From Escherichia phage PinkRuby: a stretch of DNA of 64,000 bases. Each line of letters opens with the position of its first letter. The first letter of the stretch is position 1. Both the position numbers and the translations under genes were made by a program. This document shows positions 42,773 to 44,191 of this stretch, piece by piece. The stretch lies in the sequence record PP925839.1; one strand, given 5' to 3'. The notes under the pieces were generated by a model that was not told where the DNA came from, did no database searches, and worked only from the letters and a program-made list of their open reading frames with translations.

Positions 42773-44191
42773 TTATGGATAGGTATAGATGATACCAGTT
42801 TCTAAAGCAGTTTTATGAATGATGTATCCATTACGTGATTCTTGAACATCAACTTCTGGATAGTCTTTCATCATCTTCTGAAGAGTGTAACGATGCAGGT
42901 AGTATTTACTATCTGGATCTTCAGTTTTCCAATCTTTACCTTCTTCGGTCATTTTTTGGATTTCATCCATAACCCACCAACCGCACCAGATATAAGCTGA
43001 AGTACGATGTGGAAGAGGATGAACATAAGGCAATTCACCTTCTGGTTCTGGAGCAACTTTATCAGTTACCTGAACTTGACCTTCCGCCGTAATAGTTTTG
43101 CTATCATAATCAGCAGCAGTAACAGTTGCAGTAACTTCAATAGTTTGACTTCCAATAGATGAGGTATCAACGGTATATACATTAGTTGACCCTTCTACAG
43201 GAGAAGAATCTTTCTTCCATGAATACGCAATTTGCGCTTCTTCTGGAGCATCAGTGACATTAGCAGTAAATGTAGCCGAAGCATCTTGTTGAACGTTAAT
43301 AGAAGGAGGAGTCAATGTAACCTGTGGATTCATTGTCTTCTTATTAACTGTTAATGATACTTCATTCGAAGTAACTTCCTTTTCATTGTAATTTTCAGCA
43401 GTTACTTGGGCTACGCATTTAATTCTTTTTACTCCACTTGTAGTTGGAGTATAGCTAAATGTAGAGTTAGTTTCTCCACCAACTTGTGAATCATCTACAT
43501 ACCACTGATACGTAGCAGATGCTCCATCAGGTTGAGAAGCTAAGGCAGCAGTAAATTGAACTGGGGTTCCAATTACTCCAGCTGAAGGACTATCGGGAGT
43601 TACTGCCAAAGTAGTTGTCTGTGTCTTTTTATTAACAGTCAGTGACACTTCATTAGAAGTAACTTCTTTTGCATCATAATCTGTCGCGGTTACTTGAGCC
43701 ACACACTTAATTGTTTTAACTCCACTTGTGTCAGGAGTGTAATTGAATGTAGCGCTAGTCGCTTCGCTCACAGGAGAACCGTCAACGTACCATTGATACG
43801 TAGCAGATGCGCCTGATGGCTGCGAAGCCAAAGCAGCGGTAAATTCAACAGCTGTTCCAATTACTCCAGCTGAAGGACTAGCAGGAGTTACGGCTAAGGT
43901 AGTCGTCTGTGTCTTATTTTGAACTGTGATAGTTGTAGTAGCTTCTGCTGTTTCAGCTTCAGTATCAGGAACTGGATTTGTTGCAACTACCTTAATAGTC
44001 TTTTGACCGGCAGGACCTTTTAGTACATAACTAAAAGTTGCTGACGTTTCTTCCTGCGGAGCGTCGTCTACAGTCCAAGCATATGTAATAGGTCCATCTC
44101 CAGTTTGACCACTGGGTGTAGCAGTAAACTGCTGAGTCTGATCTATAACTCCAGTAGGTGTTTTAGGAGTTATATCAACTGTAAAAGCCAT
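42773..44191 (-). CDS. hoc: Hoc highly immunogenic outer capsid protein, four Ig-like domains plus capsid-binding domain
   Basis: 472 aa; tandem Ig-like repeats of about 96 aa; C-terminal domain; position between rnlB region and inh. Confidence 0.85.
   Translation of the reverse strand: MAFTVDITPKTPTGVIDQTQQFTATPSGQTGDGPITYAWTVDDAPQEETSATFSYVLKGPAGQKTIKVVATNPVPDTEAETAEATTTITVQNKTQTTTLAVTPASPSAGVIGTAVEFTAALASQPSGASATYQWYVDGSPVSEATSATFNYTPDTSGVKTIKCVAQVTATDYDAKEVTSNEVSLTVNKKTQTTTLAVTPDSPSAGVIGTPVQFTAALASQPDGASATYQWYVDDSQVGGETNSTFSYTPTTSGVKRIKCVAQVTAENYNEKEVTSNEVSLTVNKKTMNPQVTLTPPSINVQQDASATFTANVTDAPEEAQIAYSWKKDSSPVEGSTNVYTVDTSSIGSQTIEVTATVTAADYDSKTITAEGQVQVTDKVAPEPEGELPYVHPLPHRTSAYIWCGWWVMDEIQKMTEEGKDWKTEDPDSKYYLHRYTLQKMMKDYPEVDVQESRNGYIIHKTALETGIIYTYP
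43337..43912 (-). repeat. tandem duplication of one Ig-like domain coding unit inside hoc (2 x about 288 nt)
   Basis: Protein repeats TTTLAVTP(A/D)SPSAGVIGT...EVTSNEVSLTVNKKT occur twice with few substitutions. Confidence 0.7.

Follow-up and report, generated by a model that had tools for sequence, protein, structure and literature searches.

The hoc gene of Escherichia phage PinkRuby (sequence record PP925839.1; the 64,000-nucleotide stretch analysed here is referred to as the window) is very probably an ordinary Tequatrovirus hoc carrying the common two-unit allele. Its two tandem Ig-like units of the domain 2 type (D2-type units A and B) would then be an old paralogous pair that predates the divergence of the sampled hoc genes, within an array of one to three units that has been heavily recombined. 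The predicted Hoc of the window is 472 aa long, compared with 376 aa for T4 Hoc (PDB 5vf3_Z; GenBank X14869.1, 'hoc protein (AA 1-376)'); the ORF list and these two T4 records thus confirm both lengths given in a first-pass annotation of this DNA, 472 aa here and about 376 aa for T4.

The gene product combines the T4-type C-terminal domain with an N-terminal Ig/PKD string, and the gene is positioned between inh and 24.3, as expected for Hoc. It matched T4 Hoc (5vf3_Z) with an E-value of 8e-218 (HMMER), and the hoc gene is 97.8% identical at the nucleotide level to one annotated as a capsid protein in phage vB_Eco_QOTSP. The minus-strand ORFs of the window have lengths of 226, 472, 71, 92 and 334 aa; those downstream of hoc are 24.3-like, 24.2-like and rnlB-like, and a 503-aa uvsW-like ORF is placed divergently on the plus strand. 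The gene order uvsW / inh / hoc / 24.3 / 24.2 / rnlB is conserved and matches the annotation in RB32, RB3, PST, Sf23 and UGKSEcP1. A 226-aa inh is annotated beside hoc in the first four of these, and Pfam Phage_Inh_N/C was found in the sources L033 and L034. Since the 24 kb surrounding hoc match T4-like phage records (98.2% identity for Escherichia phage SholemSchwarzbard, 97.5-97.9% for the other eleven among the best matches listed), we regard the window as a segment of a Tequatrovirus genome.

Table 1. Coordinates of hoc, its flanking elements and the domains of its product (positions in the window)
Feature	Position	Strand	Description	Basis
hoc coding sequence	42773-44191	minus	472 codons plus stop (stop at 42773-42775)	ORF list
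Shine-Dalgarno AAGGA	44198-44202	minus	6 nt 5' of the hoc ATG; overlaps the inh stop codon	read from sequence
Terminator-like GC-rich hairpin AAGGGGCTTCGGCCCCTT with T-rich tail	42741-42768 (hairpin 42751-42768)	minus	directly 3' of the hoc stop	terminator scan and sequence
inh (inhibitor of prohead protease)	44201-44881	minus	226 aa; upstream neighbour of hoc	ORF
Ig-like domain 1 (D1; aa 1-92), fibre tip	43916-44191	minus	aligns to T4 Hoc 1-92; beta-sandwich predicted, pLDDT about 90	
Unit A, D2-type Ig-like (aa 93-188)	43628-43915	minus	without counterpart in the T4 alignment; tandem repeat	
Unit B, D2-type Ig-like (aa 189-284)	43340-43627	minus	closest counterpart of T4 domain 2; aligns to T4 93-188	
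Last Ig-like domain (aa 285-380)	43052-43339	minus	equals T4 Hoc domain 3; aligns to T4 189-284; predicted beta-sandwich	
C-terminal capsid-binding domain (aa 381-472)	42776-43051	minus	nearly identical to T4 285-376	

The GC-rich hairpin listed in Table 1 lies at the position matching that of a 'put. transcriptional terminator' annotated in the T4 record X14869.1. The minus strand 5' of hoc and of inh contains no exact copy of the T4 late-promoter core TATAAATA; only one-mismatch versions, TCTAAATA and AATAAATA, were seen upstream of inh on that strand at about 44907-44930, and no promoter was assigned from them. Over the whole window the core was observed 24 times against 9 expected, and one of these copies is located on the plus strand at 44895-44902, just 5' of uvsW. 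The strand opposite hoc contains no ORF of 60 aa or more within the gene (ORF list). Antisense to inh there are two plus-strand ORFs (44291-44644 and 44574-44867, 117 and 97 aa), whose low-complexity products are most likely spurious.

The tandem repeat in the gene was evident by several measures. Tandem Repeats Finder detected 2.0 copies of a 288-nt unit over 43334-43915, with 79% matches and a score of 724, and an ungapped repeat search gave 43334-43621 and 43622-43909 with 77% identity. When compared in codon register, units A and B share 223/288 nt (77.4%) and 78/96 aa (81%). A 96-aa offset, with 72/90 identities, is the only strong self-offset in the Hoc protein, and chance is thereby excluded as the source of the repeat. 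The first-pass annotation had placed its two units within 3 nt of the codon-register ones, and it rightly described two consecutive units of about 96 aa; its wording 'nearly identical', however, overstated a likeness of 81% at the protein and 77.4% at the DNA level. It had also considered the first and fourth Ig-like units to be diverged and the DNA copies to have drifted at synonymous sites, and both statements agree with our counts: D1 and A share 36 identical residues (of 92), A and the last Ig-like domain 39, and D1 and the last domain 25, while 43 of the 65 nucleotide differences between A and B fall at third codon positions (pS 0.605, pN 0.10).

HMMER aligned residues 1-113 and 189-472 of the query to T4 Hoc, the latter segment to T4 residues 93-376 with an E-value of 1.6e-170. 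Because this alignment skips the query between 113 and 189, T4 Hoc is shorter by exactly one 96-aa unit, and together with a predicted fourth beta-sandwich (see below) this substantiates the proposed extra Ig-like domain relative to T4. T4 Hoc (376 aa; PDB 5vf3 and 8t1x; X14869.1) resembles the Hoc of the window in gene, locus, late-gene context and terminator, but it has one D2-type unit instead of two, and at the DNA level this unit is a mosaic of A and B. Unit B is 91% identical in nucleotide sequence to the T4 unit and 98% to that of RB3. Two substitutions (R/S at 397, E/D at 424) separate the last 92 residues from those of T4, and among all the Hoc forms compared the C-terminal domain shows 98-100% identity irrespective of the Ig string attached to it.

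The predicted fold agrees with four Ig-like domains. In the Pfam search PKD scored 42.3 bits against a cut-off of 23.5, and BiPBP_C, PKD_4 and PKD_3 were also above cut-off. The best stretches were 121-165 for BiPBP_C and 126-177 for Ig_2, both in unit A, and 195-267 in unit B for PKD, which matched two stretches; Ig_3 and I-set matched at 289-373 in the last Ig domain. AlphaFold2, run with a 35-sequence alignment, predicted four beta-sandwich units at an average pLDDT of 84.7, with values of about 90 for residues 1-380 and with the strands succeeding one another alike in units A and B, so that the extra unit, judged by confidence values and secondary structure, is credible as a fourth Ig-like domain in this model. 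The C-terminal domain was predicted with low confidence (pLDDT 40-67), which would be no surprise when a domain is modelled without the capsid to which it binds. The top Foldseek matches were four-Ig ectodomains with E-values of 1e-13 or lower. As the lowest rmsd values (14-16 Å) were obtained with the rod-shaped ICAM-5 D1-D4, five-domain ICAM-1 and NCAM Ig1-3, while the horseshoe-shaped Sidekick, Dscam and axonin gave about 54 Å, the model suggests that the Ig units of Hoc form an extended string.

We then considered how common the two-unit form is. In the best 60 of 680 matching records (megablast), the gene always aligned without gaps, was about 1419 nt long (range 1416-1422) and had 93.6-97.8% identity; its annotations are varied, among them 'Hoc-like head decoration', 'PKD domain protein' and 'capsid and scaffold protein'. 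When 60 of the 680 records were sampled evenly and units were counted by their span in the record (1419 vs 1131 nt), the gene measured about 1419 nt in 18 and about 1131 nt in 32, and the others were more divergent; the 18/60 frequency is an estimate from a systematic sample of BLAST matches among GenBank phage records, which are biased towards E. coli isolates. The records with the shorter, T4-like length include T4, RB3 and RB32. As many as 598 of the 680 records covered at least 80% of the query, but coverage was rejected as a count of two-unit genes because a gene with one unit aligns to both units of the query, in two pieces that are then joined, and also reaches 100%. Among the 120 best protein clusters, 79 were of 376 aa, 29 of 472 aa and 9 of 567-570 aa; clusters of 468-472 aa numbered at least 30, and eight of the nine long proteins have three D2-type units, the exception being cluster P0053. 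The exact Hoc protein of the window had no match in a collection of 15 billion proteins, in which the nearest clusters were 94% identical. Close relatives thus carry the extra unit and share the length of the gene, both in the best 60 records and in the even sample, which is the situation that the first-pass annotation itself would have taken as ordinary, and the extra unit is not special to this phage. Judged by these sequence comparisons, the two-unit Hoc is a known, ordinary, old and widely shared allele, present in roughly a third of related phages.

The 472-aa Hoc proteins of vB_Eco_QOTSP, slur02/04, teqhal, PhiZZ30, Sf23, wV7, vB_EcoM_G10400 and many others are identical to that of the window in architecture and length. 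Their genes align without gaps at 87.5-97.8% nucleotide identity, show allelic differences only, and are annotated as Hoc, PKD-domain or capsid proteins. A 568-aa Hoc, found in Escherichia phages UGKSEcP1 and UGKSEcP2 and in phage contigs in E. coli assemblies, has the same D1, last Ig-like domain and C-terminal domain, but its tandem D2-type units number three rather than two. Pu-Krd-SF4 has two units, which correspond to the second and third of the three in L034 (a phage contig in E. coli assembly GCA_050537045.1). Further away, the Hoc of Klebsiella phage Marfa (471 aa; MN044033.1; 1501-2916 of the extracted locus L006) is likewise T4-like, with four Ig-like domains and an adjacent tandem pair (aa 186-279 and 280-373, 75/94 aa identical). 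It differs in that the duplicated unit is the capsid-proximal D3-type one rather than D2, and in the best aligned segment it is 47% identical to the Hoc of the window. Related Klebsiella phages have one copy of Marfa's unit, or still shorter genes. The tandem pair of Marfa is an independent event in another lineage, a recurrence of the gain or loss of Ig units.

Variation in the number of Ig-like domains has been described for Hoc in general. Most of 650 Hoc homologs keep an Ig-like string on a conserved anchor, and the homologs carry 1-10 Ig-like domains, from one in Enterobacter phage PG7 to 10 in the 1174-aa Hoc of Serratia phage Muldoon (PMC10385173). The Hoc of E. coli phage PNJ-9 has two Ig-like domains and binds MUC2 via domain 2 (PMC11853027). 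The Muldoon, PG7 and PNJ-9 proteins share with the Hoc of the window a C-terminal anchor and a linear Ig string of variable number, but they are more distant proteins. Our literature search found general statements on variable Ig-domain number and none on the 376/472/568-aa series in Tequatrovirus.

To place units A and B among their relatives, hoc was taken from 17 other sources: T4, RB32, RB3, PST, wV7, PhiZZ30, PhiZZ6, Sf23, Pu-Krd-SF4, JS09, QOTSP, UGKSEcP1, one phage contig of an E. coli assembly and four IMG/VR contigs. All 17 gave units, and 16 entered the ortholog comparison, from which PST was left out owing to a frameshift in its record. A and B differ by a dS of about 1.23 and a dN of 0.108 (omega, dN/dS, 0.09; Nei-Gojobori), with synonymous sites near saturation. 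The orthologous segments of the 16 phages, compared with those of the window, had a dS of at most 0.41 for D1, 0.41 for the last Ig-like domain and 0.21 for the C-terminal domain. Paralogous units within each of nine genomes had dS values of 0.66-1.36, and none exceeded 78% nucleotide identity. The closest relatives of unit A were first-position units from other phages, at a dS of 0.06-0.5, and those of unit B were second-position or single units, at a dS of 0.01-0.3.

The same pattern was seen in a neighbour-joining tree of 30 units, which is approximate only, being built from heavily recombining 288-nt units. The units clustered by position across phages in two main groups, one of first-position units of arrays that open A-type together with the single units of RB32 and one IMG/VR contig, the other of second-position units together with the single units of T4, RB3, PhiZZ6 and JS09. 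The first unit of Pu-Krd-SF4 fell in the second group, beside unit 2 of the three-unit array of L034. Because the units are orthologous by position across phages, the split between A and B is older than the sampled hoc genes. The description of the pair as 'recently duplicated' in the first-pass annotation is therefore contradicted: with a dS of about 1.2 against at most 0.41 for orthologs, the copies are not each other's nearest relatives, and units group by position, not by genome.

Recombination has mixed the two types. When the units were painted at the 65 sites where A and B of the window differ, the T4 unit appeared as a mosaic whose type alternates along the unit (nt 12-35 A, 63-219 B, 228-261 A, 270-288 B), and the RB32 unit was mostly A-type to about nt 213 and then B-type. 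The single units of RB3 (98%) and PhiZZ6 (97%) were almost pure B, and that of the IMG/VR contig IMGVR_d was almost pure A (89% to A). A four-gamete test on 30 units found all four haplotypes in 1639 of 2701 informative site pairs (Rmin 35), and mosaicism was likewise observed at the protein level in 169 units. An A-type head followed by a B-type tail was tried as a signature of deletion in single-unit genes, such as a crossover from A into B would leave. RB32, T4, JS09 and two further IMG/VR contigs (IMGVR_b and IMGVR_c) fit it, but it was not decisive, as second-position units with A-type heads also occur (wV7, Pu-Krd-SF4 and unit 3 of L034).

Exchange may also involve larger pieces. The protein clusters P0053 (567 aa) and P0045 (472 aa) have an anchor 98-100% identical to that of the window, and beyond the first D2-type unit their Ig units are 23-58% identical to A and B; P0053 combines one A-like unit with a far more diverged Ig string. 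From these sequences, whole Ig modules appear to have been swapped onto an invariant C-terminal anchor in both.

A more far-reaching reading, which is quite possible but which we put forward tentatively, is that the D2 region is a cassette of one to three units, descended from an ancient pair of position-specific paralogs that recombine freely. The two-unit gene would then be the older form and the 376-aa Hoc of T4 would be derived from it by unit loss, fibre length and loops would be a standing polymorphism, and the phenomenon would recur independently in T4-like phages of Klebsiella. Unit loss in T4 fits because domain 2 of T4 is an A/B chimera. The cassette, and the notion that the canonical Hoc of T4 is possibly a shortened, chimeric form, are what is mildly new here.

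How the array itself arose was weighed between duplication in place and the joining of different alleles. We consider it rather unlikely that two hoc alleles, already diverged, were brought together during co-infection by unequal or illegitimate recombination, with unit A imported as a diverged module. Such an origin would suit the divergence between A and B, which is far above that of the orthologous flanks, and the rampant recombination within hoc. It would also suit the occurrence of single-unit genes of both nearly pure types and the very dissimilar units that share one C-terminal anchor in P0045 and P0053, as well as the junctions, at which the short motif GTT-AAT-AAR-AAG-ACA is all that is common. 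On the other hand, A and B are the closest pair when compared with D1 and the last Ig-like domain of the same protein, the corresponding unit of Klebsiella-phage Hoc is quite different on reading the sequences, and the first- and second-position clades are each common to many phages, a distribution that one old event would simply explain. Either way, whether by in-place duplication or by allele joining, the event is old.

That Ig domain 2 was duplicated in tandem recently, and only in PinkRuby or its immediate lineage, is highly improbable. The 81% aa identity of A and B, against about 26-41% for other pairs of Hoc Ig domains, and the presence of one unit only in the reference phage T4 gave the idea its appeal; however, the dS of A against B is at least three times as high as the highest value for orthologs among the sampled phages, units group by position across phages and not within genomes, tandem units are no more than 78% identical in DNA in any genome examined, and about 30% of the matching phage records have the two-unit architecture. 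Assembly errors often stem from tandem repeats, but a collapse or expansion made by the assembler has next to no probability here, as the units differ at 65/288 positions, so that reads place uniquely, the hoc ORF is intact, and the 1419-nt gene occurs in dozens of independently sequenced phages.

Within the old A/B pair the amino-acid differences are unevenly distributed. In unit codons 46-58 and 78-82, which lie between predicted strands of the AlphaFold2 model, pN was 0.319 compared with 0.047 elsewhere, with about equal pS. Diversifying selection in these two blocks was considered and rejected, since pN (0.319) stays below pS (0.643) and a dN/dS above 1 is unsupported; on the substitution counts, purifying selection acts on both D2-type units. 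Compared in register, the tandem units of the window share no identical run longer than 27 nt, and over the nine arrays examined the longest such run measures 14-36 nt. Such short runs would offer little substrate for homologous recombination, and the array may have persisted without collapsing because the copies share only these.

In the mature T4 head, each gp23* hexamer carries one Hoc at its centre, and the protein is dispensable for growth (PMC9958956, PMC10385173); the C-terminal domain binds the gp23* hexamers (PMC10385173, PMC9958956), and the 155 Hoc fibres are each 180 Å long (PMC10385173). Given the near-identical C-terminal domain, the Hoc of the window would be anchored in the same way, with D1, A, B and the equivalent of T4 domain 3 projecting outward as four Ig-like domains, compared with three in T4. 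The extra unit would make the T4-type fibre of about 180 Å longer by approximately one Ig domain, which is roughly a quarter of that length, and a longer reach is a reasonable expectation. It would also provide one more exposed module for weak binding of glycans or surfaces, with binding specificity probably residing in the variable loops. If the tentative cassette reading is true, fibre length and exposed loops would be open to selection for adherence or for antibody escape.

T4 nanoparticle and vaccine work uses Hoc as its main display scaffold, and Hoc is also a proposed mucus-adherence factor. The architecture seen in the window carries little weight as a discovery, being found in hundreds of public phage genomes and with variation in Ig number already published. 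It is of some practical use that, among the forms compared, natural Hoc lengths of one, two and three units exist on a 98-100% identical anchor, and these natural variants are ready for testing reach and module number against adherence and immunogenicity.

Some of the records encountered have peculiarities of their own. The 472-aa Hoc cluster P0027, with 58 members, bears the source name 'endonuclease [Shigella sonnei]', a misannotation of phage contigs inside bacterial assemblies, and the 32-kb record of 'Staphylococcus phage SAJK-IND' (MG010123.1), which contains a full-length T4-like hoc with 94.5% identity, is probably mislabelled or contaminated. JS09 (KF582788.2) and mar005p1 (OZ035759.1) are filed as Mosigvirus and have a Tequatrovirus-type hoc with 90-93% nucleotide identity to that of the window, which suggests either cross-genus exchange of hoc or a problem of taxonomic labelling. 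The hoc of Yersinia phage PST (NC_027404.1; 301-1720 of the extracted locus L026) spans 1420 nt, one base over 1419, and its translation is broken; the record has only a truncated CDS (791-1720), reflecting a frameshift or a sequencing error. Finally, L034 contains a 205-aa ORF (144-761) with a faint SegE GIY-YIG match between uvsW and inh, where the window has only a 50-nt spacer (44882-44931), and this ORF is likely a mobile homing-endonuclease insertion near hoc.
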